Shown here: positions 4,138 through 42,019 of the stretch, one piece after another
How the letters are laid out: every line of letters begins with the position of its first letter
Position numbering within the stretch: position 1 is the first letter of the stretch
Assembly (NCBI GenBank): GCA_001004885.1
Contig: LCRX01000014.1
Coordinates: forward strand, 1,565-65,564
DNA length: 64,000 nucleotides
DNA from: Candidatus Magasanikbacteria bacterium GW2011_GWA2_56_11
GTDB lineage: Bacteria > Patescibacteriota > Patescibacteriia > Magasanikbacterales > UBA922
Direction: 5' to 3'
Position numbers and translations under genes: made by a program
Notes under the pieces: model-generated
Told to the model about the DNA's origin: nothing
Seen by the model: only the letters and a program-made list of their open reading frames with translations
Database searches by the model: none

Positions 4138-5559
4138 TTAAAACAGATCGTCATACTCGATGACCTCACCGGAGTCGGTACTAAACCGTTTGTGTTTGCC
4201 GGCCTCGACAGTCGCGGCCGCGGCGGCCGCGTCCGCCTCTTCCGCGGACAATGCCGGCAGTAAGCGCTCAACCGGCAAACCGACCGGCGGCTCGGCCTGC
4301 TTCGAGGCCGCTTTTTGGACCAATGGCGTCTTGACGTGAGACATCGGGAAATGCCAGATAGTCGCCAGCTCTTCGATGTTGAGGACAAACGGCTTGCCCC
4401 CGGCGCCGATTTTGCGTTTTTTATAAGCTTTCATCAGCAATGACTTCTTCCGGGATGATTTTTTACTTGAACCCTTGCCGGCAAACGTGGGTACGATGGA
4501 ATTGGCGCTGGGGATGTTGTATTGCGTAAGGGCGCCCACCAGGGCATTGACCCCGCGCAAGGGATTGAAGACTTCCTTGCGGGCCCCGTACAGGCCGCGT
4601 ATCTTCGTTTTGAAACCGAGTTTGCCGATTTTAGCTTCCATAGCCTCGACCAATTTGCTCATGCCCGGAGTGAGGTACTGGAGCTGGTTCGGCGGACTGT
4701 GGTCCTCGTCATGCCCACTGACAGACTCCCGGCCAAAAACTTGGTCGCCGATACCTTCAAGCATCTTCTGCAGCCCGGATACCGTGTGGTCGATGAGGTT
4801 CAGGTGCGGATGGGATTTTTCACCGATAACTTCTTTGATTTTTTTGATCGCATCCTCTTTCCAATCGTTGCTGATGGGCTCAAGCAAAATTTGAAACCAC
4901 ATCTGTTCACCGGGTCCAATACGGGTGAAACTCTCAAGAAAAGTTCCCATCGGGTCTTTCAGGACCGTATCTTTGGAAATGGCATGCTCGAATTCGCGGT
5001 AGCTGCGGATAGGATAGGCGCTGTTCTCGGCCAGACCAAAATCGCTGATCCAGATGTCGTGGGTGGCGCTGGGATAGCTGTCAGGAATGCCGCCGGTGTA
5101 ATCTTCCACCTCGGTGATTTCCGCATCCGGGTACTGCGCGTAGACAGCCGCCTCGACCAAATCACGGAAGGCCTCCTCGGTCCAGACCAAAAACTGGATA
5201 TACCCCTCGATGCTGATGATCTCGAAGCTGAACCAGCGCTGTTTGTAACCGTCTTTAAGACGGTCTTTCAGGTCCGGCTTGGAAAAGGCGCCCGCGATGT
5301 GAGAAAACATTTGTTCCACCGCTTTGGGGGTCTGGACATTCAGGGGCGGGACGTCAACCGCGAGCAAAATGAACTTCCACTCATGAGTGTTCAGGTCCTG
5401 CTTCAGGTCTTCGTACAAGTGGAAACCGGCGAAAAACAGCAAGTAAGCCAAAACCAGCCAGCCGCCAACTGCCAGCACCTGGCCGATAATCGGCAGCGCC
5501 CCCTGGCCAAAAAAATCCGCCAGCCGGTTAAAATCGAGAAAAAAAATACCAATATCCAT
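4138..5559 (-). CDS. hypothetical membrane-anchored protein
   Basis: 473-aa ORF with N-terminal TM segment and Lys-rich segment; 4-bp gap to the upstream small membrane ORF suggests an operon. Confidence 0.5.
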   Translation of the reverse strand: MDIGIFFLDFNRLADFFGQGALPIIGQVLAVGGWLVLAYLLFFAGFHLYEDLKQDLNTHEWKFILLAVDVPPLNVQTPKAVEQMFSHIAGAFSKPDLKDRLKDGYKQRWFSFEIISIEGYIQFLVWTEEAFRDLVEAAVYAQYPDAEITEVEDYTGGIPDSYPSATHDIWISDFGLAENSAYPIRSYREFEHAISKDTVLKDPMGTFLESFTRIGPGEQMWFQILLEPISNDWKEDAIKKIKEVIGEKSHPHLNLIDHTVSGLQKMLEGIGDQVFGRESVSGHDEDHSPPNQLQYLTPGMSKLVEAMEAKIGKLGFKTKIRGLYGARKEVFNPLRGVNALVGALTQYNIPSANSIVPTFAGKGSSKKSSRKKSLLMKAYKKRKIGAGGKPFVLNIEELATIWHFPMSHVKTPLVQKAASKQAEPPVGLPVERLLPALSAEEADAAAAAATVEAGKHKRFSTDSGEVIEYDDLF

Positions 5560-8922: not shown

Positions 8923-11787
<2,865 letters not shown>

Positions 11788-28645: not shown

Positions 28646-28754
28646 ACTAGGATTACCGCTAACCTCCGCGCCGCCATCCCGCCCCGGCATATGCGCTGCT
28701 GGCGCAGAAGACTGGTATAACACTTCTGGCAGATAAACGCGGTACGGCTGCCGT

Positions 28755-29039
28755 TCAAACGGAGCGGCAAGATTTTAATTTTCTGATTAACGAGCTGGCC
28801 AACCAACCGACTCCGTATAGCAGCGCAGCGTTTATTGCGATCGATAAAACATAGGAAACCGGATTGATGCCCGTGCCTACATTGAGAAAAAATATCCAGG
28901 GCGCGGCAGGTATAATAATCTCGATTCCGCACGACCAATCCCCCCGGGGGCAGTCCTCTAGTAAGCCATAGATACCAAGACCGATAGTTATCGTTAAATA
29001 CAATCCTACGAGGACTGGGCCGATTTTTGTTTTCTTCAT
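28755..29039 (-). CDS. small membrane protein (cassette ORF)
   Basis: 94 aa, hydrophobic. Confidence 0.35.
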   Translation of the reverse strand: MKKTKIGPVLVGLYLTITIGLGIYGLLEDCPRGDWSCGIEIIIPAAPWIFFLNVGTGINPVSYVLSIAINAALLYGVGWLASSLIRKLKSCRSV

Positions 29040-29115
29040 ATAACCGGATAAAAAACGCCAGACAAAAATCTTAACCTTTTTGTCCGCCTTAATTACCTAA
29101 AAAATATCAACCATT

Positions 29116-30249
29116 TTATTTTCGTTCAGGATATATCCGATATTCCAGGCAATGATACTCATTGCCGCCCAGACCTTTTTCGTCATACTCAGTTTCAATT
29201 TTTCCGCCTAGCGACTCAGGAATTTTTCGGCTGGAAATATTTTTATCAGCTACGGGATACAAAAGATAATCGTAATCCAAATTTTCGTCCGCCCACTTTT
29301 TAACTGCGACCATTGCTTCTTTGCCATAACCTTTCCCGTGCGCTGATTTTTTTATCCAAACGCCCATTTCTGGAGTTTTTCCATCAACATGGTGTAGGCC
29401 GGCACAGCCGAAAAATTCCTGAGAGTCTTTTGCGACAATTACAAGTTGAAGATTGCTACCTTCGTTCAAACCTTTTAGAGAATTTTCTATAAATACCTCA
29501 ATTCCCGAAATATCTTTGGCCGGAGCTTCATACATGAAAGTTGTTATTTCTGGTGAAAATTCTCTAAAAATTTCATCCCTATACCGCATTGATATTGGCA
29601 CGAGCAAAAGACGTTCGCTTTCTATGCGCTCTGCCAGTAATCCTTGTTCATTTTTCATAATTGGTTTTTCCATGATAAGAAAAACTCTGGACAATTTAAT
29701 TTCATCTTTGTCCGCTTTTTCTTTTAACAAGAGTATCGCCAACGCTGATCCCATGGCCACAATTTTATTTTTTAAAGCCATTTCAACAGCTCTATCGTAA
29801 TCCACTAAAATTACGTCAATGTCTTCTGGTACATAATCGCCGGAGTCATTTTTTTGATCGAGCTTGGATATGTCTTTGCTGAAAAATAAATGTATTTTAC
29901 GGTTAAGTTGACCGTATGTTTCATAAAAAACGCCGAGTTTTGTTAAAGAATTGCATGTATATCCTGTTTCCTCCTCAAATTCTCTCTTTGCGCCCTCCTC
30001 TATGGTCTCGGCGCTTTGATTATATCCTGAAGGAAATTCTATAACCTCATCATCAACCATATAACGGTACTGCTTGATCATGACAAGCTTTTTATCCTCA
30101 GTCATACCCACAACCATGGCTGAATCTGGACTATCCCAATAAGTCCATTCCCTTTTTTCGCCGTTGGGAAGCTCTACTATGTCCTGCCTTACTTTAAAGT
30201 ACTTAGAATCTAAGGCAAGTTTTGATTGTAGACATTTCCATTTTTTCAT
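29116..30249 (-). CDS. NUDIX hydrolase - GNAT N-acetyltransferase fusion protein
   Basis: N-terminal Nudix box GYNQSAETIEEGAKREFEEETGY. C-terminal RimJ/RimL-like GNAT (QLVIVAKDSQEFFGCAGLHHVD...GKGYGKEAM). Confidence 0.6.
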   Translation of the reverse strand: MKKWKCLQSKLALDSKYFKVRQDIVELPNGEKREWTYWDSPDSAMVVGMTEDKKLVMIKQYRYMVDDEVIEFPSGYNQSAETIEEGAKREFEEETGYTCNSLTKLGVFYETYGQLNRKIHLFFSKDISKLDQKNDSGDYVPEDIDVILVDYDRAVEMALKNKIVAMGSALAILLLKEKADKDEIKLSRVFLIMEKPIMKNEQGLLAERIESERLLLVPISMRYRDEIFREFSPEITTFMYEAPAKDISGIEVFIENSLKGLNEGSNLQLVIVAKDSQEFFGCAGLHHVDGKTPEMGVWIKKSAHGKGYGKEAMVAVKKWADENLDYDYLLYPVADKNISSRKIPESLGGKIETEYDEKGLGGNEYHCLEYRIYPERK

Positions 30250-30442
30250 AATTAATTTTATCGTTTTGGCGGGTCGCAAGAGGGGGGCGAAGGTGACGAA
30301 TCGCGGCCTGCCAAAACACCTACTTCAGTTTCCTTATTAGAGCAGTCGGTCGCGCGCATTTTTTTGTCTTCAGCAGGCATTTTCAACTGTTCCCAAAATG
30401 GGAACGGCTGTGATAACGCCGTGTCCCGTTCCTTCATTTTTG

Positions 30443-30589
30443 CCCAGTAAGTTTTTGGTTGTGGCTATCAGTTAAAACACCAACGATATCCAAAATTGAA
30501 AACCACCATTCTTTTTTATAAATGATTTTCCTTATTTCTTTGCCTTTAAACAAGGCAATATGGTGGTTTGGATTTTGAGTGTCTGACAT
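30443..30589 (-). pseudogene. Bro-N/KilA-N-like domain fragment (remnant cassette ORF, under 60 aa)
   Basis: MSDTQNPNHHIALFKGKEIRKIIYKKEWWFSILDIVGVL matches the Bro-N N-terminal pattern; then stop and frameshifted continuation. Confidence 0.3.
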
Positions 30590-30645
30590 AGTGTAATAAT
30601 TTATTAAATATCGGTTCGGCGGGCATTCTATTCGTATTTGGATTA

Positions 30646-31053
30646 CTAATTTTCTTCGTAAAAAACTTCCAATCTCAAACCATCGGGATCGTGAAAGAAA
30701 ACCGCGTAATACAATTCATCTCCGTAGTCCGGGTAATGTCTTGGTTTTCCGTCAGTATTGGCTTTCATTTTAGTGAGAAGTTTGTATAAATCATCCACAA
30801 TTTTCTTTTTCCCCACGGCCATACCAAGGTGATGAAAACCGACCCTATAATGGTCAAACTTGTCAGCAAAATACTCTTTGTGCCCTTGAAAAATAGCTAA
30901 AAAATACGGAAAGTTTTTTGATTGATAATAAACATGCTGTTTATTTGCGAACGCGATAGTAAAACCGAGGGAGCCAAGCACTTTATCATACCAAAGTTTA
31001 GACTTTCTCAAGTTTTTTACGGTAAGAACGAAATGACTTCTTTTTTCAATCAT
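30646..31053 (-). CDS. VOC family protein (glyoxalase/bleomycin-resistance fold)
   Basis: 135 aa; HHLGMAV...DPDGLRLEVF pattern. Confidence 0.55.
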   Translation of the reverse strand: MIEKRSHFVLTVKNLRKSKLWYDKVLGSLGFTIAFANKQHVYYQSKNFPYFLAIFQGHKEYFADKFDHYRVGFHHLGMAVGKKKIVDDLYKLLTKMKANTDGKPRHYPDYGDELYYAVFFHDPDGLRLEVFYEEN

Positions 31054-31084
31054 ATGTTTTATTCATAATTGTCTGTATTTTATT

Positions 31085-31143
31085 GCGCCTAACGTCCGTG
31101 CATATGCGCGATGTTTCAATATCGTATATACGCTGTTAGGCGC
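31085..31143 (-). repeat. attC-like recombination site (59 bp)
   Basis: GCGCCTAAC ... GTTAGGCGC perfect inverse cores; begins 12 bp after the cupin stop codon. Confidence 0.6.
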
Positions 31144-31154
31144 GGTTTCGCCGA

Positions 31155-31514
31155 TCACAGCACCTCCTCGTCCTCCTTGTGCCACGCCGGATCGACAATA
31201 CAGAGGAACACAAGATCGGTCTTTCCTGAGTTGCGAATATACTGTTGTGTGTTTGGCGGGATATACACGGCCTGGCCCGGACAAACTTTTTTCGACTCCT
31301 CGCCGATCTGCATGACCCCTTCGCCTTCGAGAATGTAATAGACTTCTGACGTCTTCAACTTATGCGGATAAGAGGTTTTTCCCGGCTTGACTACTGCGTG
31401 CGCCAGACTGTAGCGGAGTTCAAGATCGTCTTTCTCCGGATGCAAGAGTTCGCGCAGGATTGTATTGTCTCCGGCGATGAACTCTTCACAATCTTTTAGA
31501 TCTTTGATAAACAT
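31155..31514 (-). CDS. cupin domain protein
   Basis: 119 aa, conserved cupin Gly/His pattern. Confidence 0.55.
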   Translation of the reverse strand: MFIKDLKDCEEFIAGDNTILRELLHPEKDDLELRYSLAHAVVKPGKTSYPHKLKTSEVYYILEGEGVMQIGEESKKVCPGQAVYIPPNTQQYIRNSGKTDLVFLCIVDPAWHKEDEEVL

Positions 31515-31528
31515 AGGCGAAACAATTT

Positions 31529-31601
31529 CAGCTAATGTTTGCGCGATATGACGTGCGGAGCATATGGGCGGGTGGCGCGAACCGTGTACACGCTTAGGAC
31601 G
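31529..31601 (-). repeat. attC-like site (degenerate cores)
   Basis: cagctaatgtttgcgcg ... gtgtacacgcttaggacg inverted ends; followed by GNRA hairpin gggcGAAAgccc. Confidence 0.45.
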
Positions 31602-31642
31602 TGATAAGGGCGAAAGCCCCGCAGCGATATCGCCGTACCCGT

Positions 31643-32773
31643 TTATTTCATGAAAATATCAATATATTTTCGATAGACAAATGCGCGGTCGTAGGTTTCT
31701 TTGGCGTCTTTCAATTCAAGAATATCAAGGTTCATAAATCTGTCGATAAGTTTTTGGGATCCAACGCGAGAAAATTTGGTCCACTCCATTATTGTTTTAC
31801 TTGAGACAATCGGCTGAGCATACAATTTTCGTAATACCAAAACACCGCTTGCCGACTCTCTCTTCGCCAGGGATTGAATTTTTGCCATGTCGTTTTCTCG
31901 AAGTTTGGTAATTTGTTTTGATACGGATATTGAATCGTTGGCTGTTTCAATGACGCCATCAAGAAAAAAATCAATCCACGATTCAACCTCGCCAAAATGA
32001 TAATCATGCAGTTTTTGGTAGTAAATTTTTTGATGTTTTTTAAAATATGACGATAAAAATAATACCGGCCGCTCAAGCATGTTGCGGTGGCAAAGAAGCA
32101 TGGTTATCAATAAGCGGCCGGCTCTTCCGTTGCCATCAAGAAACGGGTGTATCGTTTCAAATTGGGCGTGAGTAAGGGCGGCGTGGATTAAGGGAAGAGC
32201 TAATTTTTCGTTGTGTAAGAATTTTTCCAGATCATTCAAAGCCCTGTTCATCTCACTCACTGTCGGCGGGACAAATGAAGCATTATTCGGCGTCGTTCCG
32301 CCAATCCAGTTCTGTGATTTGCGGAATTCGCCCGGATCGGCAAAATGAGTGGCGCGGGCATCAGTCATCAATTGCGCGTGTATTTCGCGGATCAATCGCA
32401 AAGAGAGCGGAAAATCTTTTAGTCGTTCAACACCGTAGTTGAGTGCTTTGATGTAGAACAAAATATCGTCAGCATCAGTTTTTTTAACCGTTACGCCGGC
32501 ATTCATTTCTATCGCATCGGCCATACTGGCCTTAGTGCCCTCAATTTGAGAAGAGGAAGCCGCGTCTTTAGCGACGAACATGGAAAGAAAAAAGTCCACA
32601 TCAGGCAGGGTGTGGGTTATACCGTCCAGTTTACCGATTAAGCGGTCCGCTTCTGCCGCTTTAATCAGTATGGCCTGTGATAATTCGAGCAATCCTTTAG
32701 GGGGGAACGGACGTGGCACAAAGGCGGTAAAACCCTCTGTTTGTTTGACATTTTGACCGATTTCAATTTTCAT
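31643..32773 (-). CDS. Fic family protein (AMPylator) with winged-helix domains
   Basis: Fic motif HPFLDGNGRAGR. Confidence 0.8.
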   Translation of the reverse strand: MKIEIGQNVKQTEGFTAFVPRPFPPKGLLELSQAILIKAAEADRLIGKLDGITHTLPDVDFFLSMFVAKDAASSSQIEGTKASMADAIEMNAGVTVKKTDADDILFYIKALNYGVERLKDFPLSLRLIREIHAQLMTDARATHFADPGEFRKSQNWIGGTTPNNASFVPPTVSEMNRALNDLEKFLHNEKLALPLIHAALTHAQFETIHPFLDGNGRAGRLLITMLLCHRNMLERPVLFLSSYFKKHQKIYYQKLHDYHFGEVESWIDFFLDGVIETANDSISVSKQITKLRENDMAKIQSLAKRESASGVLVLRKLYAQPIVSSKTIMEWTKFSRVGSQKLIDRFMNLDILELKDAKETYDRAFVYRKYIDIFMK

Positions 32774-32805
32774 AGATAGTTTACTAGTTTTTTATGATAT
32801 AAACT

Positions 32806-32834
32806 ATCTTATACCTTAGTTTATATGTTGTCAA
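32806..32834 (-). promoter_or_regulatory. sigma70-like promoter for fic with overlapping 10-bp inverted repeat (possible operator)
   Basis: Minus strand TTGACA, 17 nt, TAAGAT. Inverted repeat agatagttta/taaactatct (32775-32809) overlaps the -10 and TSS. Confidence 0.35.
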
Positions 32835-33045
32835 GAGATGAAAACTAAGTATTTTTTTATTCGCTTAGAAGAGCGAATAATGGCCCTCCGGTTCTTTCTT
32901 TTTTGGCCCAAATGTCAACGCATTCATCTTAACCATTAGCGGCCATTATGCGATAAGGAAATTTTCTTACCTTTTTTAAATGTTCTTCCAGAGTATATCC
33001 AATTAATGAATTGGCGCCGAATGCGTATAGGCTGTGAGCAAAATA

Positions 33046-33660
33046 TCACAAGCAGTAATTAATCAAAAAAATATCCATCTCTTGATTTTTGGCGATATTG
33101 TTTAAAAAATAAGCCAGTTTGAATCTTAAATTGCCATCCCATATAATATTTTCGATTCTGCACTGGCCGAACTCCGACAAGGTTTCAAATGTAAAACTTT
33201 TTGGAATTTTAATAACTACATTAGGCGTAATGTATCGTTTAGTTAGATTAAACATTTCTCGCGTGCTTGGTTGCGTATCATCAATGTTGTTTGCGTGAGT
33301 AGGAGGATTTACCCCTTGCATATTCCATTCGGGGTCAAGTATTGCCACATCAGCTGGCAAGCTTTTTAATAAATCAGGATCGAGCGCATCGCCAACGATG
33401 AAGTTAGTCCTCTCTTCTACCCCATATAATACAGCGTTCTTTTTGGCGTCCTCTATCCTTGATGGAATTATATCAACGCCACATGCGCTTTTTAAATGTT
33501 TTGCTAATTGCACGACAATCATGCCGGTGGCGCAACATAGTTCAACTGCGGTTTTAAATTGCGCTAGACTTTTGGCTATGTGTTCACCCACAAATTCAGG
33601 GCAGCTCATATCATAAGCATCCCGATCGGAGAATATATTTTTTGTGAATTTTTTCTTCAT
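33046..33660 (-). CDS. SAM-dependent methyltransferase, Tgs1/RNA-cap guanine-N2 MTase-like
   Basis: VELCCATGMIVVQLA...GVDI...DAKKNAVLYGV...FIVGDALD pattern. Confidence 0.5.
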   Translation of the reverse strand: MKKKFTKNIFSDRDAYDMSCPEFVGEHIAKSLAQFKTAVELCCATGMIVVQLAKHLKSACGVDIIPSRIEDAKKNAVLYGVEERTNFIVGDALDPDLLKSLPADVAILDPEWNMQGVNPPTHANNIDDTQPSTREMFNLTKRYITPNVVIKIPKSFTFETLSEFGQCRIENIIWDGNLRFKLAYFLNNIAKNQEMDIFLINYCL

Positions 33661-33716
33661 AATTCAAGTACGCGCTTTTTCCTGGACCCCACACACGCTG
33701 TTATACTATGTATCGC

Positions 33717-34337
33717 TCAAACCGTCATCTCTACGGCAAAAAGTTCTTTTCTGCATGTGGTCATAATACCGACATGGCAAGCAGCGACCTTGGTGGCCGT
33801 AAATTTTAACGGCAAGATTTCCTGCCCCGCTGCTTCTTTGGTTCGGATTGTAATGTGCGGATCAAAAGCCTCGAAACTGTGAGACGCTGCGAATTTATTT
33901 ATCCAGTCTGGTTCAGCCACTTCCTCGCCCGTTCTTGAGAAAAGCGATCCTTTCGTGCAGTCATATGAAAAGTATTGTCGAAGCCCGTTCATAAGATTCT
34001 CATGAAGCCGCTGTAATTCAGAGGATTTTCTTGCGCGGACGGCATAGATTTTAGATCCATCGGATTTTTCTGCGTAATATAACTCCGCTAGCTCAACGAG
34101 AATCGGACTAAAGTTTTTTACTATACCTTCGACAATACTTTTCACGGTTTCGAGGCTGTCGTCTTCAATGCCACCCATAGCCAATGACATGTGCGGCAGG
34201 AAATCATCTTTCGCCAGCGGACCCCAAGCCGCATTTCTAGTTGCTGCTTGCTGGTTAATATCAATTATCTTTTCCATTACATCTAGGGGCGGAAGAATGG
34301 CCACATCTATTGCTAACTTTTTAGAGATTGTGTTCAT
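33717..34337 (-). CDS. 2H phosphoesterase superfamily protein (LigT / 2'-5' RNA ligase-like)
   Basis: Two H-x-T/S-x motifs (PHMSLA and PHITIR). Confidence 0.5.
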   Translation of the reverse strand: MNTISKKLAIDVAILPPLDVMEKIIDINQQAATRNAAWGPLAKDDFLPHMSLAMGGIEDDSLETVKSIVEGIVKNFSPILVELAELYYAEKSDGSKIYAVRARKSSELQRLHENLMNGLRQYFSYDCTKGSLFSRTGEEVAEPDWINKFAASHSFEAFDPHITIRTKEAAGQEILPLKFTATKVAACHVGIMTTCRKELFAVEMTV

Positions 34338-34370
34338 AGGATTACGCAGAGAGAGATACTTCGCCTAACG

Positions 34371-34489
34371 TTCGCGCCGATGCAAAGTTGCTGCGCGGTA
34401 CAATTTAACGCGGGGCGCTCTAGCGCGCAACAATTTGGATGAGCACGCCCACAAGGAGCGAACTGCGCATGCGCTGTTGTACGATGACC
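34371..34489 (-). repeat. attC-like site
   Basis: + strand cgcctaacgttcgcg ... cgctgttgtacgatgac. Cassette orientation: TACAAC...cgcgaacGTTAGGCG. Confidence 0.5.
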
Positions 34490-34496
34490 ACTTTTT

Positions 34497-34670
34497 CTAT
34501 TTCTTTTTTAAACCGTTCTTTTGCGCGTAAGCTCGTGCTGCTGCAGCGCTCGAACCGCCAGTATATTTCGGTTTAGTTTTTATACTGGCAGAAACAGTTA
34601 CGCCGTCTGTATCTGTTTCTATAGTTATTGAATTGCCTTTGTTGTCGGAATAAGTTTCGATTTTACCCAT
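34497..34670 (-). CDS. small cassette ORF (57 aa, below ORF-track cutoff)
   Basis: MGKIETYSDNKGNSITIETDTDGVTVSASIKTKPKYTGGSSAAAARAYAQKNGLKKK between two attC-like sites. Confidence 0.25.
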   Translation of the reverse strand: MGKIETYSDNKGNSITIETDTDGVTVSASIKTKPKYTGGSSAAAARAYAQKNGLKKK

Positions 34671-34717
34671 ATTGTCTAGATTAAAAGTGATTTAAGTGAT
34701 ATAGAAAAAGTGGCTTT

Positions 34718-34915
34718 CGCGCAACGTTCGTGTGTATGTGAAGTTTTCATCCCGTTTTAACGGAATTACTTTAATTATCAAACACACCTTTTTTAATAAA
34801 CTCCACCCAAATCCTCATCCCTTAAACAGAGAGGATTTAGGTGGAGGAAAATTGGCGCTCTTTAAGGATTTAATTAACGCCAATTTTCCGTGGCCAGATA
34901 TGCGTTGTTATGTCC
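34718..34915 (-). repeat. attC-like site (long, ~200 bp, with 16-bp internal hairpin)
   Basis: cgcgcaacgttcgtgtgtatg ... gatatgcgttgttatgtcc ends. Internal stem ctccacccaaatcctc/gaggatttaggtggag. Confidence 0.45.
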
Positions 34916-34945
34916 TGTAAAAAAAATTTTGCCAAGCTTTTTCTG

Positions 34946-35197
34946 TTATTCTTCAGTGTTTACTCCTACTCCATCATAATATGGCTCATCATCGGCATTG
35001 CAAGATACAAAATTAAGTTCTATACCTCCTTCAAATTTAATAGTAACACCCCCTGAATTATCGAGTTCAAATCCCACTACTACTTTCCCCATTAAAGTCC
35101 CGAGCCGCTTTTCTAATCTCCTCGCGGGTGTATCTTTCTCAACTACCTCCTCAACTACCTCGACTTTTGATATTTCCCTAGGATTTCCTTCAGACAT
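34946..35197 (-). CDS. small acidic hypothetical protein (cassette ORF)
   Basis: 83 aa. Confidence 0.35.
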   Translation of the reverse strand: MSEGNPREISKVEVVEEVVEKDTPARRLEKRLGTLMGKVVVGFELDNSGGVTIKFEGGIELNFVSCNADDEPYYDGVGVNTEE

Positions 35198-35233
35198 ACA
35201 TTAATTATTTAATGATTAAAAATTTTTATTATG

Positions 35234-35340
35234 GCGTATAACGTCGTGTGCATGCGATATGGCACAATGATATATTTTACTCATCATTGTGCCATATGGG
35301 CGAGGCTTCAGCCGAGTCGCATGCACGCTATTATGTGATG
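35234..35340 (-). repeat. attC-like site
   Basis: gcgtataacgtcgtgtgcatgcg ... gcatgcacgctattatgtg ends; central 11-bp hairpin tggcacaatga/tcattgtgcca. Confidence 0.5.
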
Positions 35341-35345
35341 TCGCG

Positions 35346-36041
35346 CTAATTTTTCTGCTCTTTAAAAGAGATATCCTTCATTAAAGTATCAAGTCCATCG
35401 GCCTTGCTGTAACTTACAACCGCTTGGAGGTGATAATCGCCAAATGCATTCGGTACAAAATATTCCAGTCGACTGATTTGCCCCTGGTCAAACATTTTCT
35501 CGAAATAGTCTGTTTTTACACGCAATGCATTTTTGCCATTCACGCTTACTTTTTGCGCGGTGGCATTTTTATTTTCGTAACCAAGCGCCTTTATTATTTC
35601 AGATTCTGACTGGTTAAAGTTAATGCATTCAAAACAAGTAGTGCTGTAATCTGCTGCTGCCGGAGCAAAATCTTTCGTTTCCCACCAAAGTTGCGGCGTT
35701 GATGGAGCATTATCAACGCTTGTATATTTTTCATTTGCAAAGCCAATTTTAAATAGCTTTCCTATGCCGTCTTTGTGTGTCTCATCTGTAAATTTTGGTG
35801 TGCCCCACGAATTGTTATAACAGAAAGAAAGATTTTGCGATTCATACATTGTCCAGTTTTGGGGACATTCTACTTTTGTTTCTGTGCGCTCGACTGTCTT
35901 TTCACTTACAACTCGTGTTGAGGTAATGTCGGGTGCTGTCTCAGCATTTCTATTTTGCCAAAGAAAAATGCCACCGCCTACAACGACGACTGTAACTATA
36001 ACAGCAAGGCCGATTGTCCATGGATTAGTTTTGTACTCCAT
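35346..36041 (-). CDS. membrane-anchored/secreted hypothetical protein (cassette ORF)
   Basis: 231 aa, N-terminal TM, Cys-containing extracytoplasmic domain. Confidence 0.45.
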   Translation of the reverse strand: MEYKTNPWTIGLAVIVTVVVVGGGIFLWQNRNAETAPDITSTRVVSEKTVERTETKVECPQNWTMYESQNLSFCYNNSWGTPKFTDETHKDGIGKLFKIGFANEKYTSVDNAPSTPQLWWETKDFAPAAADYSTTCFECINFNQSESEIIKALGYENKNATAQKVSVNGKNALRVKTDYFEKMFDQGQISRLEYFVPNAFGDYHLQAVVSYSKADGLDTLMKDISFKEQKN

Positions 36042-36100
36042 AATGTTTTGGTTAAGAATTAAACCTACTTTAATGTAAAAGAAAAATTAGCGCAATTTCG

Positions 36101-36163
36101 CATAACCTTCGCGTCTCATCTACTGTAGAGCGCTTGCGGAATGGCGGGTAGACGCTGTTATGT
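36101..36163 (-). repeat. attC-like site (~63 bp)
   Basis: Cassette orientation: (stop)TAACagcgtc ... gagacgcgaagGTTATGCG. The Nudix stop codon lies inside the R''-like core. Confidence 0.5.
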
Positions 36164-36682
36164 GATGTGCATCCCGGAGCCAACATTATTTGAAAAATAG
36201 TCAACACATTCTTTGGTAGATTTTAGAAAAATATCAGGAAAATCAGCTAATTTCTTAAGTAACTCCTCTCTAGAGAACCATTTTATTTGTTCGACTTCTT
36301 CCTTTTGGATTGTAAACTCATGAATATCTTTATCTAACAAGGCAAAATACCACTGTACAAAATGTTTATGTTTACCGTCATTCATTTTATAAAACGCCTT
36401 TTCGAAGTGACAGTTATTTAAACCAATTTCTTCCTCGGCCTCCTTAATGATATTTGATTCATAGGTTTCTCCCTGGTCAATGGTCCCTGCAACGGCAGGC
36501 CCCCATTTTCCGGGGTCATGCTTTTTGTTGAATGATCGTTGGGCTAGGAGGGTGTCACCTTTAGAATTCTGAATCCATAAGGCCGAGACGCGATAGATGT
36601 CTTCTGGTTTCAAAGTTCCTCGCTCTTTCAATCCAATGACGCTATCCTTTTCATCGACAATTATAATTTTTGCCTTACTCAT
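36158..36682 (-). CDS. NUDIX hydrolase
   Basis: Nudix box GTIDQGETYESNIIKEAEEEIGL. Confidence 0.6.
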   Translation of the reverse strand: MSKAKIIIVDEKDSVIGLKERGTLKPEDIYRVSALWIQNSKGDTLLAQRSFNKKHDPGKWGPAVAGTIDQGETYESNIIKEAEEEIGLNNCHFEKAFYKMNDGKHKHFVQWYFALLDKDIHEFTIQKEEVEQIKWFSREELLKKLADFPDIFLKSTKECVDYFSNNVGSGMHIT

Positions 36683-36731
36683 ATTCGTTTACAATTCAAT
36701 GCTTTCTTGCGAAAAGCTCCGGGCAGCATAT

Positions 36732-36861
36732 CACATAACGTTCGCGCGTATCGATGTTCACTGGCTGTATAATATCGCGAAGCGGTACAGCCAGCAAATA
36801 TGGGCGGAGGCTTGCGGAGGAACGGAGCAAGCCGTAGCCGCATACACGCTGTTAGCTGATG
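36732..36861 (-). repeat. attC-like site
   Basis: Cassette orientation: catcAGCTAACagcgtgtatg ... catcgatacgcgcgaacGTTATGTG; central 8-bp hairpin. Confidence 0.5.
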
Positions 36862-36904
36862 TAAATAAATTCAATGAGCGAAGCGAATATTATTCAGACA
36901 AATT

Positions 36905-37513
36905 TTAAAAAAATCCCAAGAGATTGAAAAACAATCTAACAGAAAAAATGATAATCACTAACGATGCCAGGAAATTGAAACTAGCGATTATTTTTTTGTT
37001 GCCGGTTTTATTGATCGCTGAACCTAGATAGACGACTACAACGAAACAAAGAAATGATCCGATTGACAAAGATAGTGAGTTAGCTATGATTGTTTGAAAG
37101 ATATGCTCTTTTATGTTTAGAAAGGAAGTTGCGACTCCAATAAAATAAACATAAGTAAGAGGAGATAGCGCACAGAGAACCATTCCATTTAGAAAGGATT
37201 GTTTTTCAATCGGGTTGTCACTATTACTTAACTTTCCAAGACTTTTTAGAAAACCTGTTATTCCAACGAATAACATATAGCCGACGCCGACCATTCCGAT
37301 ACCATAATACAGCCAAGGAATTTTTATAAATTGACTGATTCCAAAGTAGCTCAATACAAGAATAATAAAGTTCATTGTCGCTACACCAGATGCCAAAACA
37401 ATCCCTTGGCGTTTTTTACCAAGAAGCGAAGTTTGTAATACTGTTGTTTGAATCACACCTGGGGAGGCGGCGGCGCTAAAACCGATTATAAAGCTTGAAA
37501 GTAATAGTGACAT
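36905..37513 (-). CDS. LysE/RhtB family amino-acid exporter
   Basis: 202 aa, 6 TM helices, LysE-type N-terminal pattern. Confidence 0.6.
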   Translation of the reverse strand: MSLLLSSFIIGFSAAASPGVIQTTVLQTSLLGKKRQGIVLASGVATMNFIILVLSYFGISQFIKIPWLYYGIGMVGVGYMLFVGITGFLKSLGKLSNSDNPIEKQSFLNGMVLCALSPLTYVYFIGVATSFLNIKEHIFQTIIANSLSLSIGSFLCFVVVVYLGSAINKTGNKKIIASFNFLASLVIIIFSVRLFFNLLGFF

Positions 37514-37570
37514 TTTTTAAAATTTGTCTGAATAATTTTTCGGCCACAGCCGAAAAGAATTTATTTATTT

Positions 37571-37673
37571 CAGCTAACGTTTCGGCATATCTGATGTTTG
37601 CCGTAGCGTAGCGGAGGCAAATATGGGTGGAGGCTTTTGTAAAAAGCCGTAACCAGATATGCCGAACATCTCA
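37571..37673 (-). repeat. attC-like site
   Basis: cagctaacgtttcggcatatctg ... cagatatgccgaacatc inverted arms; the HNH stop codon abuts the site. Confidence 0.5.
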
Positions 37674-38264
37674 ATCAATACCTTCAGTTTTTAACAGTGC
37701 TTTAACGCATAACGAGTATTCTTTGTCTTCTTCTGCCTCTGGTTTTATGCTTTCTAATACTGCTTCTTTTGCACTATCTTCTAGCTTTGCACATGCTCCA
37801 ATAACTTTTTTGAGCAAATTGATTCTATCTTGTCGTCTTTCAATTAAAGCTGGGCGGTTTAGGTGCACGCCGCTTTGCTCTTCAATGGTAATTTTTCCTT
37901 TTGTTGAATTATCCTTATGTGCAAAGAAAGCTCCCAATACGACTATATGTGTTTCGGGGTCTTCATCGTATGGATTAAGGATTGGATTTGCTTCATCATA
38001 TTTGTCAGATTTATAGCCGTTGCAACGTGCACAGACGTATCCTAAATTTCCCCAATCAAATTCTAAGCCTGGGAATTTTGACTTTGGCTTTATGTGTTCA
38101 ATGTCACCGTAGTAAGTATGGGATACTTTGCTTTCGCAATACATGCATTTATCATGACTGGCCAAGATGAGAACCGCCTTGTTGTCAGGGTGTTTATAAT
38201 TTGTTCTCAATGCCTCTTGATTTGGGCATTGTGGTCTACTTAGTTTGATCATTTGAATTTTCAA
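37671..38264 (-). CDS. HNH endonuclease (PtuB-like)
   Basis: CMYCESK...GDIEHIKPKS...CARCNGYK HNH/zinc motif; overlaps the ATPase gene by 29 bp. Confidence 0.6.
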   Translation of the reverse strand: MKIQMIKLSRPQCPNQEALRTNYKHPDNKAVLILASHDKCMYCESKVSHTYYGDIEHIKPKSKFPGLEFDWGNLGYVCARCNGYKSDKYDEANPILNPYDEDPETHIVVLGAFFAHKDNSTKGKITIEEQSGVHLNRPALIERRQDRINLLKKVIGACAKLEDSAKEAVLESIKPEAEEDKEYSLCVKALLKTEGID

Positions 38265-39480
38265 TTAAGCTGTAAACGGCTTCGGGCATGATTTTCTCTA
38301 GTCCCATTTCCTTTAACTCATTGCGCATTTGAGTAAATTTTTCTTTGGTAATGCTTTCTTTCGAGTATTTTGCGACTATCTCATTCAACTTATCTTCTAC
38401 CCATATTGGCATTGTAAAGGCCACGCCCAAAACTTCATCCAATATTTCCGCCGCTGTCTTTGCTTTATTTATGAAGTCTAGTCGTTCACTGACAATTTTA
38501 TTGTTTTCGTTATATCTCAAGGCGTATACATTTGATTCTTTAACTGAACCAACAATGAGCGGATTATGAGTAGAGACGATAAAGCGTGTATTTGGAAACG
38601 CCCCAAGGAAGTCTGGCAATATTTGCCGTTGCATTGTCGGATGAAGATGATTTTCAACTTCATCTATTAAAACAGTAAAATTGGGATTATCTTTTTCCTC
38701 TGTGGCATAAAAATAAATTTGCCAAGCAAGGTCTATTATTGCGCTTATTCCACCAGATGAAGCATCAATAACAAACTCACCTGATGTACAAATCAGTAGA
38801 ACCTCTGAGTTTCGTATAGCAAATTTTTGAAAACCTAAAGTTTTGGGCAGTACTTTTTTAAGTACCTCTTGAAAACCATTGTAATATTCGAGAAGGGTTT
38901 CATTCGCATCCATATCTTTGTTGCCTTGGCCAAAAATACTCCAGCAAATGAGAGCTTCTTTTATATGAAAACTACTTGGAACGTCATTTCCGCCACCATA
39001 TCTACTTTTGTTACTATTCCAAACTTTATCGAAAGCCTGTTTTTTGTTGATTGTATTTGCGGTTGGAATTTGAGTTACTTTTTGGTATCTGAATATTGAT
39101 CTATGTGAGGGGATGAAAAAGCACTTTACTCCTTGTTGCCCCTCGATTTGCATGTTGTATTGTGCCTCGTTTTGTTCTTTTGGCACCTTCAATATAGCTT
39201 TTTGTCCATCACTATAATTTAATTCACCTTTAGTATCTTTTGGCTCCTCATCTTCCACCCAAAAGGAAGAGAACCATTTCCAAACCTTGGTTTTTATGTC
39301 CTTTTTTGGAGTTGCTAAGGATTTTGCATCCCAACCGCAATGTCTTGCTAAAAGATGCAACAGAGTTGTTTTACCACTTGCATTTGCGCCTGTTAAAATA
39401 GTCAACCGATCATGGAAATCTATTTCGATATTTTCAAATTGTTGCCACTCCGCTGTAATTTTTAATTTTTTGAAATCCAT
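38236..39480 (-). CDS. AAA_21/ABC-type ATPase (PtuA/OLD-like)
   Basis: Walker A GANASGKTT. Walker B VLIDEVENHLHP. STHNP motif. Confidence 0.65.
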   Translation of the reverse strand: MDFKKLKITAEWQQFENIEIDFHDRLTILTGANASGKTTLLHLLARHCGWDAKSLATPKKDIKTKVWKWFSSFWVEDEEPKDTKGELNYSDGQKAILKVPKEQNEAQYNMQIEGQQGVKCFFIPSHRSIFRYQKVTQIPTANTINKKQAFDKVWNSNKSRYGGGNDVPSSFHIKEALICWSIFGQGNKDMDANETLLEYYNGFQEVLKKVLPKTLGFQKFAIRNSEVLLICTSGEFVIDASSGGISAIIDLAWQIYFYATEEKDNPNFTVLIDEVENHLHPTMQRQILPDFLGAFPNTRFIVSTHNPLIVGSVKESNVYALRYNENNKIVSERLDFINKAKTAAEILDEVLGVAFTMPIWVEDKLNEIVAKYSKESITKEKFTQMRNELKEMGLEKIMPEAVYSLIENSNDQTK

Positions 39481-39501
39481 AGATTGATCCTACTGCAAAA
39501 C

Positions 39502-40440
39502 CTATTTTTTAAATTCTCTGAAGTACTTGCCGAATACTTTCTGGAACAAAACTGTTTTTTCATAAAGCCAAGCAAAATATTTTTCTGCTTCGGCTTGGTC
39601 AAATACGCCTGAAACTTCCTTTTTAATTTTTATACGGGAGGCGACGGCCGCATCCACCCATTCGATAGACTCGCCAATTTCTTTTTCAATTTCTGCTTTT
39701 CGTTCGCGTAAAAAAATAAATAAGTCTTTATTTCTGCTGATATAAATCTCACAGCCAATCAAGTTTTCACGAGAGTTAATAGTTAGTGCTACATGGCCGT
39801 CTGAACTGCCCATGCTAACATCGTACCAATGTTGAGGGCGAGGAGTTTGTAGTCGGATTTGGGTGTCGTTTTCTCGTACATAATTTTTGAATTTGTTCCA
39901 AAATTCAAGCTGTTGCAATTTTGTATCAGTTAGCTCGCCATTTGATGGACTTGTCTTAATTGCCTTTGCCCATTCATTTGGACTAACCATAATCTCAAAT
40001 TTTGGCGCAGGATTCGAGCCTTCTATTTGCCAAAGTTCAATTTTTATCAAAAAGAAACCGATATTTTCATCTGTATGTTCGTTAAGCCAATCGATCGCTT
40101 TTTGATGTTCATCGCGTACATCTTTAACAATCCAAATAATTATTTCCGCATCGTATCCCGACGCATAAGTAATAATTTTTCCTAAATGATCGTGGTTGGT
40201 ATCTTCGAGCTGATTTTCGATTATAATCTTTCTCCCTGACGCTTCTTCTTCGGCGAGGATATCAACGCTAAATTTTCCCACGCTCGCTTCGGTTTTGATA
40301 AGTTTTATATCAACGCCTATTTCTTCACTCAAGGCATCAAGATTTTCTTGCTGTGCGAGCCAGTTAGTAAAATCAATGGCTTCGTGACTCCAGACATCGC
40401 GTAGTTCAACTTTATTTAGTTTAGATAGTGATTTTTTCAT
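39502..40440 (-). CDS. DUF4268-like protein with possible PD-(D/E)xK nuclease core
   Basis: 312 aa; VDILAEEE...IIIENQL motif; 21 bp upstream of the ATPase gene with no attC between them. Confidence 0.45.
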   Translation of the reverse strand: MKKSLSKLNKVELRDVWSHEAIDFTNWLAQQENLDALSEEIGVDIKLIKTEASVGKFSVDILAEEEASGRKIIIENQLEDTNHDHLGKIITYASGYDAEIIIWIVKDVRDEHQKAIDWLNEHTDENIGFFLIKIELWQIEGSNPAPKFEIMVSPNEWAKAIKTSPSNGELTDTKLQQLEFWNKFKNYVRENDTQIRLQTPRPQHWYDVSMGSSDGHVALTINSRENLIGCEIYISRNKDLFIFLRERKAEIEKEIGESIEWVDAAVASRIKIKKEVSGVFDQAEAEKYFAWLYEKTVLFQKVFGKYFREFKK

Positions 40441-40607
40441 AGTGTAAATTTACTTACTGTTATTGTATTCGTTTTCCCCTTATAAATAAATCGTTTTCGG
40501 AGCAAAGCGGAGAAAACACCTTATATCCCCTTTAAAAATAAAGAAAAAGAAATTTGAAAATTTTTTAAAACAATTGGGCGATAGCCCAAAAAAGAAAAGG
40601 AATATTT

Positions 40608-40750
40608 CAGCTAATGTTCGCGTGTATGAGAAGTTTCGCCGACTTCCTTACTCTTAATTATAGAGGAGGCGAAATTTGGGTGAAAGAAAAAGTGCAGCCG
40701 CTGAAAAATATTAACGCACTTTTTCTTAAACCTCATACACCCTGTTAGGC
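40608..40750 (-). repeat. attC-like site (~143 bp) after the first cassette
   Basis: Cassette orientation: (stop TAA inside) GCCTAACagggtgtatgag ... ctcatacacgcgaacATTAGCTG. Confidence 0.55.
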
Positions 40751-41080
40751 GATGTATTCTTTTTCTTTGTTATCATCTTTATTTTTATTTTTTTCATCAT
40801 AGTACTCATAATTTTTCTTATTGCCCCAAACTCTAAATTTGGCAACCATAAAACCACTGATGATAAGTGCCACTCCTATTTTCCAGTTTATAAAGAGAAA
40901 AATTAATCCTGCGATTACTAATTCTCCAGTAATCACGCTTAATAGAGGATTTGGTCCCAAAGGAAAAACGTGCAATAGCGTGCCAATGATGAAAAGCACT
41001 ATTGATACTTGCCAGTTGAAAAAAATAAAAACGATTGCGGCGATTGCCATCAGATACTTTATTGCGTTTAGAATTTTCAT
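40745..41080 (-). CDS. small membrane protein (first cassette after attI-like site)
   Basis: 111 aa, 3 TM helices, Lys/Asp-rich tail; stop codon inside GCCTAAC. Confidence 0.4.
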   Translation of the reverse strand: MKILNAIKYLMAIAAIVFIFFNWQVSIVLFIIGTLLHVFPLGPNPLLSVITGELVIAGLIFLFINWKIGVALIISGFMVAKFRVWGNKKNYEYYDEKNKNKDDNKEKEYIA

Positions 41081-41104
41081 AATTTTATCTTAAAAGAAAA
41101 AGAA

Positions 41105-41131
41105 TATTTCACCTAACTGGCCGTTATAACC
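41105..41131 (-). other. attI-like site (GTTAGGT core) between cassette 1 and the recombinase gene
   Basis: Minus strand GTTATAACggccaGTTAGGTgaaatatt. The gaaat(a/t) motif after the core is shared with the R' ends of attC sites at 40608 and 37571. Confidence 0.4.
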
Positions 41132-41206
41132 AATGTTTTTTAATTAACAGCCAAAATTTGTATGATAAACGAATAGATGCTAGGCTTAGGTTACTTTTCA
41201 AAAAAC

Positions 41207-42019
41207 ATGGCAAACCTAATCGAAATTCTAACACGAGAGATAAAATTGCGCAATTACAGCCCAAAAACGCTGGCGGCCTATGTTTTTGTTGTCAGGGACA
41301 TCTATGCCTTTCACCAGCGGCCGCCAAAGGAACTCACAACTGAAGATATAAAGGACTACCTCCTGGCCAAGCAAAAAAAAGGCCTGTCAAGCCAGACCGT
41401 CGCCCTTTATGCCAACGCGCTCAACTTTCTCTATGGCGAGGTGTACAAACGCCCCAACTTTGTCCGGATTAAACACCCCAAACGGTCCTCACGGCTCCCG
41501 GTGGTGCTGCGCCGGGACGAAATCGAGCGATTGTTGGCTGTCATCAAAAATATTAAGCACCGAACGCTGGTGGCGCTGGCCTATGGCGCCGGACTCCGAG
41601 TGGGCGAGGCGGTGCGTCTCAGGGTCGCGGACATTGACCTTGACGAGCTCACGATAACCGTGCGCCAAGGAAAGGGTAAAAAAGACAGGCTGACCGTTCT
41701 ATCCGCAAGTCTGACGCCGGACTTGCGTGAATTTATGACTGGCAAAACTGGCCAAGCGTATATTTTCGGCAGCGAACGGGGCGGCCGTTTAACCGAAGCC
41801 ACCGCGCAAAAAGTATTCGTCCGCGCGCTCCAAAAAGCCGGCGTTGTAAAGCCGGCCACCTTCCATTCGCTGCGCCACTCCTTCGCCACTCACCTCTTGG
41901 AAAACGGCGTGGACGTGCGCTATGTGCAAGAGCTATTGGGACACGCCAATATCCGCACCACGCAAATTTATACCAAAGTAACGAATCCAAGGCTCAAAAA
42001 TATCAAAAGCCCCCTATGA
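41207..42019 (+). CDS. tyrosine site-specific recombinase, XerC/XerD-like (candidate cassette integrase; lacks IntI additional domain)
   Basis: R...K...HSLRHSFATHLL...LLGHANIRTTQIYTKV catalytic motifs. ~42 aa between K-box and HxxR (XerD length, not IntI). 4-bp ATGA overlap with elp3. Confidence 0.8.
   Translation: MANLIEILTREIKLRNYSPKTLAAYVFVVRDIYAFHQRPPKELTTEDIKDYLLAKQKKGLSSQTVALYANALNFLYGEVYKRPNFVRIKHPKRSSRLPVVLRRDEIERLLAVIKNIKHRTLVALAYGAGLRVGEAVRLRVADIDLDELTITVRQGKGKKDRLTVLSASLTPDLREFMTGKTGQAYIFGSERGGRLTEATAQKVFVRALQKAGVVKPATFHSLRHSFATHLLENGVDVRYVQELLGHANIRTTQIYTKVTNPRLKNIKSPL

Follow-up and report, generated by a model that had tools for sequence, protein, structure and literature searches.

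The 64,000-nt window analysed here, part of contig LCRX01000014.1 of Candidatus Magasanikbacteria bacterium GW2011_GWA2_56_11, contains a low-GC block (positions 28760-41117; 39.4% GC, against 57.4% and 56.8% in the two flanks) whose substantial open reading frames (ORFs) all lie on the minus strand and have unrelated functions, and which ends beside a divergently oriented tyrosine recombinase gene (Table 1). This confirms the low-GC array of unrelated minus-strand genes described in the original prediction, which took the array, with its inverted repeats, for either a cassette platform served by an Xer-family enzyme or a cluster of attC sites lacking integron-integrases (CALIN) next to the housekeeping Xer. 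The flanks encode SecA, SecD, MurA, MurC and the protease Prc, which marks the host as bacterial, and the relatives of the recombinase place it among the Patescibacteria (candidate phyla radiation, CPR).

The repeat elements were located by hand and with nhmmer profiles of both element ends, and their core-to-core coordinates run from the T of TAAC to the A of GTTA on the plus strand (a naive TAAC...GTTA scan that allowed only ungapped stems gave too much noise where loci are AT-rich, and its strict version missed the imperfect stems of the window). Two families of seven copies each occur on the plus strand (..GCCTAAC-GTTCGCGC.. and ..ACACGCT-GTTAGGCGATGT..), bearing out the proposed fit of the repeat ends to attC-type RYYYAAC/GTTRRRY cores. 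Overall, we recognised eight complete elements (B, C, E, F, G, H, I and K; 49-189 nt core to core) and three partial ones (J, D and an arm at 28649-28663), and all end-profile matches of the window fall within 31080-40756, with none in the other 50 kb. The inverted repeats thus recur as described beforehand except in the distal 2.3 kb (28.76-31.08 kb), where no hairpin is recognisable and one gene is broken, a state consistent with the decay of old cassettes. Several stop codons had been said to lie inside the core; we found two (genes ending at 36158 and 40745).

Under DNA energy parameters, the elements of the window fold into Y-shaped hairpins (z-scores -1.7 to -6.9) in which an outer stem (nnnTAAC/GTTAnnn) is followed by an inner stem of ~11 bp and two terminal hairpins, with a bulge of 3 nt (GTT) on the 5' arm. 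Across 31 elements from 17 loci, 86% of the cells were paired vs. 73.5% in shuffles (a level reached by 0 of 500 shuffles), with the inner stem 92% paired and 8 of its 11 pairs changed on both sides, and shifting the register lowered pairing to 28-50%. The outer stem keeps a T·T mismatch (24/31) and a T·G pair (26/31); no single-base bulge is conserved in the inner stem, and the element owes its asymmetry to the 3-nt bulge on the 5' arm. The repeats thus both fold and covary, a point on which the original prediction had made itself depend. In 27 of 32 elements, the fold of the element strand is stabler than that of its complement (p = 3e-5), and the element strand holds 66 G·T cells vs. 18 A·C cells, a polarity that matches the “bottom strand” of integrons, complementary to the ORF sense strand; since the folded strand is antisense to the ORFs, a role at the mRNA level is unlikely. 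As a control, a canonical attC beside a true IntI (locus L057:307-372) folded on the corresponding strand, with three single-base bulges on its 3' arm. A search of Rfam, also at permissive thresholds, gave no relevant match for the elements (the attC model is not part of Rfam).

On the side of the recombinase gene, the array finishes with ATTTCACC-TAAC (41106-41117), 59 nt from the ATG at 41177 and 89 nt from the ATG at 41207, and this end forms part of a site (ATTTCACCTAA-CTGGCCG-TTATAACCAAT) with inverted arms of ~11 bp (ATTTCnnnTAA and TATnnGAAnT) around a centre of ~7 bp. This is the architecture of dif-type core sites, in which two inverted ~11-bp arms surround a short centre (PMC5357621). 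Directly upstream of the recombinase in about 43 loci, the consensus reads ATTTCnnaYAAC-TnGTTTn-TATncGAAnT, and the arrays of related loci always abut this primary site; the recombinase-proximal junction consists of an L-type arm (ATTTCnnnTAAC), the centre and the right arm, and neither a hairpin nor an R-type arm (ACATC) ever takes its place. In the hairpins, the outer stem pairs an ATTTCnnnTAA arm with TTAnnnGATGT, and the inner stem has the conserved TAT followed by GAWGT, its opposite strand reading as an arm-like ACTTCnnATAC. Since the arms of the hairpin thus share the grammar of the double-stranded site, the folded element imitates that site, just as attC does attI in integrons and the CTX-phage hairpin does dif (PMC3442271).

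The two ends of a cassette also match each other: the 28 nt beyond the 4-nt core agree with the reverse complement of the same cassette's other end at 15-20 of 28 positions (seven cassettes), compared to a background of about 8 and to 6-12 for pairs across one hairpin. This implies that each cassette owns an extension of the outer stem of ~20 nt, split at TAAC/GTTA when the cassette is linear, and for four cassettes the hairpin gains 13-15 kcal/mol in stability once the circular form is rebuilt. The invariant proximal junction fits a plus-strand exchange at TAA|C. It also fits the original assumption that a cassette would be an ORF followed by its hairpin, with the newest one adjoining the recombinase, as judged from the array ends of the about 43 loci. 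The opposite orientation (a gene with its recombinase-proximal hairpin, crossover at G|TTA), which the bulge on the 5' arm had suggested, was rejected for insertion events, because the proximal junction is never a hairpin.

Cassettes have moved between arrays. A cassette shared by L010:5417-6318 and L125:66-979 (89% identical) opens one of the two arrays and lies inside the other, with another hairpin after it; one shared by L018:598-1150 and L091:221-772 (89%) occupies array positions 2 and 3; and a third shared stretch (L096:1176-2549 and L103:6476-7838, 86%) comprises a hairpin and two genes. The homology of these shared cassettes stops at the TAAC/GTTA cores. The array of the window differs in content from that of its relative L001 (recombinase 78% identical), so that the static content in relatives envisaged by the original prediction as a refutation was not found, the same cassettes occurring at different positions instead. 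Genes and hairpin interiors assort separately: in two of the three comparisons the interiors differ on both sides of the shared cassette, and the core of the R end must therefore serve at least occasionally as a crossover point (in top-strand or duplex events).

Several observations on cassettes and interiors stand apart from these comparisons. Terminal inverted repeats at L018:1332-1360 plus 2125-2152 and at L096:251-280 plus 1160-1190 are ~98% identical over ~48 nt and enclose proteins only 35% identical over part of their length, such that the ends are far better conserved than the cargo. Some cassettes (L001:1-668; L018:1-600) have a high GC content (61%), a plus-strand gene against the usual orientation and a promoter-like sequence of their own (TTGACA-17-TAtAAT), and the “hairpin” next to the one in L018 has shrunk to CAAC-12 nt-GTTA. 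The interior of element F (34722-34910) is 82% identical to L018:1145-1336 and 72% identical to L100:4627-4812, with flanks that lack homology, and the conserved unpaired interior motifs GAWGTT ... AAWWTGGG are only partly accounted for by mimicry of the arms.

Such separate assortment could also arise if the L and R ends were double-stranded Xer sites between which genes and interiors are shuffled as independent modules, with the hairpin form irrelevant, as in the pdif modules of Acinetobacter (PMC7399989), which are likewise gene modules between inverted Xer-type sites, stacked and found in different contexts. Read as a duplex, each end is indeed a complete two-armed site (ATTTCnnnTAA-9/10 nt-GTATCnGAWGT for L, GAACCnGATAC-6 nt-TTAnnnGATGT for R), the two shared cassettes with different interiors are bounded by GTTA...TAAC, and the interiors behave as independent conserved modules. 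Plain duplex sites would, however, need neither the strong covariation that keeps both ends complementary nor the excess of G·T over A·C and the stability difference that point to one folded strand; the stem extensions make sense only in a folded circular form, and the arm joined to the proximal site is always of the L type (ATTTC), never of the R type. Moreover, pdif sites are plain 28-bp XerC/XerD duplexes on plasmids, whereas the paired sites described here are complementary, covary and fold, in a chromosomal array anchored to a recombinase gene. We consider duplex shuffling improbable, and cassette transfer through a folded strand the better explanation.

To evaluate how firmly array and recombinase are linked, 160 related loci from genomes and metagenomes were searched with both end profiles, and linkage was counted for the 73 of them with a recombinase of at least 45% identity. 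Upstream of the recombinase and on its own strand we found 115 hairpin-end matches (249 kb), compared to none downstream (415 kb) and none on the opposite strand. Among the 33 loci that extend at least 1 kb upstream of the gene, 28 had elements, or 22 of 27 when the loci used to seed the profiles were left out. In 36 of the 73 loci the contig breaks off at <700 bp from the gene on its upstream side, vs. 11 at the downstream end, which is what a repeat-rich and population-variable array does to an assembly, and the contigs of L004 and L007 begin at the core itself. Unrelated loci gave only five weak single matches in about 0.9 Mb, and the profiles had no match in the flanks of six true IntI genes.

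This distribution bears on two other explanations. The first, that the elements are generic intergenic repeats (repetitive extragenic palindromes, miniature inverted-repeat transposable elements or transcription terminators) in an acquired island without a role in recombination, would account for hairpins downstream of ORFs and for two terminator-like sites near the array end. It is the least probable of the readings considered here and already largely refuted by distribution and strand bias, as copies independent of one locus, expected of a dispersed repeat, were not found (neither in the 415 kb downstream nor in the other 50 kb of the window, contrary to the genome-wide spread that the original prediction had allowed for). 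The wobble bias lies on the strand antisense to mRNA, cores and arms are conserved and match a recombinase-type site, cassettes shared between different arrays have their breakpoints at the cores, and the Rfam search was negative. The second, that an ordinary CALIN is moved in trans by a canonical IntI encoded elsewhere and lies beside an unrelated Xer-like gene, draws on the commonness of CALINs in bacteria and archaea (PMC9668308) and on the fit of the cores to RYYYAAC/GTTRRRY. Co-occurrence in a fixed orientation in 28 of 33 informative loci across many lineages makes a chance adjacency of CALIN and housekeeping gene untenable; the hairpin arms match the double-stranded site beside the gene, the profiles miss the flanks of true IntI genes, and the same site grammar recurs beside more distant relatives of the recombinase (see below). 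This explanation, too, is very improbable and largely refuted, and of the two possibilities left by the original prediction it is the platform served by an Xer-family enzyme that the recurrence supports.

The recombinase ORF encodes 280 aa with the catalytic residues R141, K166/169, H230, R233, H256 and Y265 all present and invariant in 24 homologues; because these homologues start there, the ATG at 41207 is the likely start. The XerD-like spacing of ~42 aa between K-box and HxxR proposed originally is in fact 61-64 aa (K166/K169 to H230), while the absence of an insertion holds. The protein scores 224.1 bits against the XerA-type model NF040815 (cut-off 220) and 224 bits, in two stretches, against the integron-integrase model TIGR02249, which is under the cut-off of 265. 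Its best solved relative is VchIntIA (2a3v, 169 bits), followed by XerA structures (146-148 bits) and XerD (90 bits). The alignment with VchIntIA is split (query 22-187 to 13-181 and 204-280 to 241-317), with 16 query residues facing 59 in IntI. This insert of ~43 aa is present in six true IntIs, taken from the distant recombinase matches, and absent here and in the Patescibacteria, archaeal, Firmicute and Spirochaete relatives.

In a rough neighbour-joining tree (40 sequences, no bootstrap), the Patescibacteria proteins form a clade of their own, which is separate from that of the IntIs and has archaeal XerA-like proteins as its nearest neighbours, and the identity of the recombinase is 36% to IntIs and 40% to the archaeal proteins; its identification as an Xer-like, non-IntI enzyme therefore stands. 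The clade fits the “Cand” subgroup, Xer-related recombinases of candidate phyla (PMC8138268). Relatives number 7870 proteins at E<=1e-20, the best 120 of them being 61-99% identical. The ATGA overlap with elp3 noted originally (42016-42019) is real, and since the genes downstream of the recombinase differ in L001 (a glycosyltransferase there), this coupling is local to the present genome.

Compared to classical integrons (including sedentary chromosomal and archaeal ones; Ghaly et al., 2022, PMC9668308), the array shares a divergent recombinase gene with an adjacent double-stranded, attI-like primary site, and small unrelated genes in one orientation, behind each of which lies an imperfect palindrome whose cores are of the RYYYAAC...GTTRRRY type. 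It also shares the folding of the ORF-complementary strand into a hairpin that mimics a two-armed core site (R box and L box), a newest cassette adjoining the recombinase and a similar cargo, defence systems included. Two features that define integrons are nevertheless lacking: the recombinase has no IntI additional domain and belongs to a different clade, and the hairpins have no extrahelical L-box bases, with a 3-nt bulge on the cleaved arm instead. The conserved T·T/T·G mismatch in the outer stem, the ~20-nt private stem extension of each cassette, the Y-shaped interiors (of few conserved types and not always inherited with the gene) and the plain dif-like palindrome at the primary site are further differences. 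In the VchIntIA-VCR structure that MacDonald and colleagues described in 2006, the additional domain of IntI reportedly contacts the extrahelical bases, and the hairpins described here lack these bases just as the recombinase lacks the domain.

Taken together, these results suggest an integron-like gene-capture platform in a Patescibacteria (CPR) chromosome, run by the adjacent Xer/XerA-like recombinase and not by an IntI, a reading to which, on sequence grounds, we would give a probability of about 70%. The primary site would be an ordinary double-stranded dif-like core site beside the recombinase gene, and each cassette would end in an element of 60-200 nt in which two copies of such a site, complementary to each other, lie in inverted orientation. 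Once single-stranded, the ORF-complementary strand would fold into a Y-shaped hairpin that mimics the double-stranded site, its outer stem (nnnTAAC/GTTAnnn) acting as one arm and the 11-bp inner stem with the conserved TAT as the other, with the 3-nt bulge on the strand to be cleaved. Insertion would then be a one-strand exchange at TAA|C between hairpin and double-stranded site, beside the recombinase gene, and excision the same exchange between two hairpins, replication completing the event. Recombination of attC x attI in integrons and the integration of CTX phage at dif follow the same logic. Covariation and strand bias point to such a single-strand route, the junction suggests the cleavage point and the linkage suggests this recombinase as the catalyst; the differing interiors of the shared cassettes would require additional R-end crossovers in the model.

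The same mechanism could serve a different purpose if the recombinase were the single dimer-resolving Xer of the cell and the adjacent site the chromosomal dif, which the hairpin elements would hijack and on which they would pile up, as integrative mobile elements exploiting Xer recombination (IMEX) do. The anatomy fits that of CTX-phage-type IMEX (PMC3442271, PMC5357621), in which an Xer-family enzyme without the IntI domain acts on a double-stranded dif-type target and on a hairpin whose two inverted dif-like sites are separated by ~100 nt and whose central region is imperfect, completion by replication being expected. In CTX-phage integration, XerC catalyses a single strand exchange on a folded single-stranded attP (PMC3442271). 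Much about the recombinase agrees with this: the full R-K-H-R-H-Y set without extra domains, the position nearest to archaeal XerA-like proteins, a very large family that fits the “Cand” group of Xer-related enzymes and is conserved across Patescibacteria classes, and a site with the classical dif architecture. Xer/dif modules of one Xer-like recombinase with a two-armed site beside its own gene also exist (XerS/difSL and some archaeal xerA/dif; PMC5357621), with no cassette arrays or hairpin sites described for them.

On the other side, the sign of the GC skew does not change across the locus in 7 of the 9 loci whose flanks are long enough, the window among them (weak evidence, with flanks of only 8 kb), so that the site is usually not at the skew switch where a dif is expected; archaeal dif sites are not always at 180 degrees (PMC5357621). 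The cassettes are single genes or small operons without replication, phage or transfer functions, many of them are stacked in an orientation-locked array, and there is one recombinase instead of XerC plus XerD. Near-universal arrays of this kind look more like a platform maintained by the host, and we regard the hijacking of a chromosomal dif as possible but unlikely. The recombinase may also be the housekeeping Xer of the genome; this would alter the purpose of the enzyme but leave the working of the array as it is.

Several points weigh against an integron-like platform as such. A recombinase gene with an adjacent dif site is an arrangement already known, and the platform may be the dif module itself (XerS/difSL; PMC5357621); in the same direction, the very wide distribution of the family and its conservation across Patescibacteria classes are what a housekeeping Xer would lead one to expect. 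Unlike in classical attC, it is the cleaved arm that carries the 3-nt bulge, and a strict integron model predicts that hairpin interiors would not differ on both sides of a shared cassette. The interiors, moreover, are of few types, 72-88% conserved across species whose recombinases are ~50% identical and unlinked to the flanking genes, which hints at a further function beyond the present model.

The same hairpin grammar (e.g., ATTTCCGATAAC-GTTC-CTGTATTCACG...CGTGAATATTAT-GTTAGGTGATGT) was found outside the Patescibacteria in arrays of a Spirochaetia metagenome-assembled genome (MAG; L034) and of Saccharibacillus kuerlensis DSM 22868 (L032), beside recombinases of 366-381 aa that are 40-44% identical and lack the additional domain; in Paenibacillus sp. 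NFR01 (L026), the available flank of 1 kb contains one hairpin of this kind. Recombinase gene and cassettes point in the same direction in these loci. We see the chances as even that a distinct integron class extends over several phyla, defined by a domain-less Xer/XerA-like recombinase, bulged hairpins without extrahelical bases and a dif-like site beside its own gene.

Individually, L032:10900-12700 holds three near-identical hairpins, each downstream of a plus-strand ORF, and a dif-like site (GTTTCTTATAAC-GTCTTAT-TTACGAACTT) near 10930, and L026:11380-11510 follows the same grammar; the recombinase relatives of these two loci (379-381 aa, 44% identical) have no IntI domain and are co-directional with the cassettes. 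L034:4553-10169 has at least four complete hairpins downstream of the short, 366-aa recombinase and on the strand opposite to it, with plus-strand cassette ORFs between them, so that the grammar is kept in a geometry of the “inverted integrase” kind.

The definition of integrons rests on IntI and its additional domain. How folded single strands became substrates for an Xer-like ancestor is still an open question (PMC4792948), for which a domain-less Xer-like enzyme tied to hairpin arrays offers a testable alternative or intermediate solution. If it is indeed a distinct class of integron, the system would either have arrived at cassette capture independently or survive as an intermediate between Xer/dif and IntI/attC, and most Patescibacteria would carry a cassette platform that IntI-based surveys miss. 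The arrays also imply that these small-genome episymbionts, usually seen as gene-poor, keep a dedicated store of exchangeable genes. Searches that require IntI would at best file such loci as CALINs, surveys that keep only IntI-containing elements (e.g., PMC12259885) would not report them, and about half of the contigs break at the array, which hides the loci further. We found no description of such a system in Patescibacteria in the literature searched, coverage of which is incomplete, such that an earlier description is possible. The cultured Saccharibacillus kuerlensis DSM 22868 and Paenibacillus sp. NFR01 could serve as laboratory models.

Table 1. Features of the array and its recombinase-proximal border, in window coordinates (dG, folding free energy; c-c, core to core).
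Feature	Position	Strand	Remarks
Degenerate L-type arm GGATTACCGC-TAAC (28649-28663), then GC-rich, poorly folding remnant	28649-28760	+	Probable distal array end, tentative; profile match 1.7 bits, weak fold
Distal low-GC block without recognisable hairpins	28755-31053	-	Four gene entries
94-aa membrane protein	28755-29039	-	Distal block
NUDIX-GNAT fusion	29116-30279	-	Distal block
Two pieces of one broken gene	30258-30589	-	Distal block
Glyoxalase-fold protein	30646-31053	-	Distal block
Hairpin element B (attC analogue)	31082-31146 (c-c 31090-31138)	+	dG -14.6, z -5.0
Cupin cassette gene	31155-31514	-	Cassette 50% GC
Hairpin element C	31525-31604 (c-c 31533-31596)	+	R core degenerate (CTTA)
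Fic, SoFic-type	31643-32773	-	No hairpin between Fic and methyltransferase genes
Methyltransferase	33046-33660	-	Pair with Fic spans 31643-33660
Element D, R end alone (…CACACGCT-GTTATACT)	33680-33711 (R end 33700)	+	10.8 bits
2'-5' RNA ligase superfamily cassette gene	33717-34337	-	
Hairpin element E	34358-34487 (c-c 34366-34479)	+	dG circular form -40.7 vs. -26.2 in array context
57-aa cassette protein, no assigned function	34497-34670	-	
Hairpin element F	34714-34918 (c-c 34722-34910)	+	About 190 nt
83-aa cassette protein, no assigned function	34946-35197	-	
Hairpin element G	35231-35341 (c-c 35239-35333)	+	dG -29.7, z -6.9; circular form -44.9
231-aa cassette protein, no assigned function	35346-36041	-	N-terminal membrane anchor
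Hairpin element H	36095-36168 (c-c 36103-36160)	+	GTTA core holds NUDIX stop codon
NUDIX hydrolase cassette gene	36158-36682	-	
Hairpin element I	36728-36862 (c-c 36736-36854)	+	Y-shaped: R stem, 3-nt bulge, inner stem, two terminal hairpins
LysE-type translocator cassette gene	36905-37513	-	
Partial element J	37567-37665 (hairpin 37575-37665)	+	Normal L end and inner stem, R end without GTTA core; dG -23.2
Three-gene cassette	37671-40440	-	Septu pair and DUF4268/PDC-S11 protein
PtuB (HNH), Septu	37671-38264	-	220 bits
PtuA (ATPase), Septu	38236-39480	-	574 bits
DUF4268/PDC-S11 protein	39502-40440	-	401 bits
Hairpin element K	40604-40755 (c-c 40612-40747)	+	
First (recombinase-proximal) cassette gene, 111-aa membrane protein	40745-41080	-	31% GC
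Double-stranded dif-like site (attI analogue) ATTTCACCTAA-CTGGCCG-TTATAACCAAT	41106-41134	+	Proposed crossover TAA|C
Tyrosine recombinase, Patescibacteria Xer-like clade, 280 aa	41177-42019	+	Likely true start ATG 41207
Elp3 (radical SAM/GNAT tRNA-modification enzyme)	42016-43680	+	Full-length, 509 bits

The cargo families (GNAT, glyoxalase, cupin, NUDIX, Fic and Septu) are typical of the content of chromosomal integrons, and a store of 39% GC, defence genes included, in a host of 57% GC points to acquisition from other lineages. Defence genes carried as minus-strand cassettes are PtuA and PtuB (Septu), a PDC-S11 candidate in the same cassette and the SoFic-type Fic. The broken gene of the distal block consists of two ORFs that are 58-78% identical to parts of a 236-aa protein intact in the array region of L013.

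An RNase P RNA at window positions 77-390 (plus strand) scores as archaeal type (RF00373, 125.8 bits, full length); the archaeal host that it suggested is excluded by the SecA, SecD, MurA, MurC and Prc genes of the flanks. Within the interior of hairpin K, a promoter-like TTCACC-16-TATAAT (40657-40684, minus strand) is directed into the next cassette, and a promoter scan close to the array end gave one site vs. 3.3 expected from shuffles, i.e., no enrichment, such that there is only a hint of hairpin interiors driving downstream cassettes. Between the start of the PDC-S11 gene and the cassette end (40441-40600), a non-coding leader of ~140 nt is 91% identical to L010 ~4182-4344, where the neighbouring gene has no protein similarity to the DUF4268/PDC-S11 gene of the window, and this leader may act as a promoter or regulatory module carried along with cassettes.

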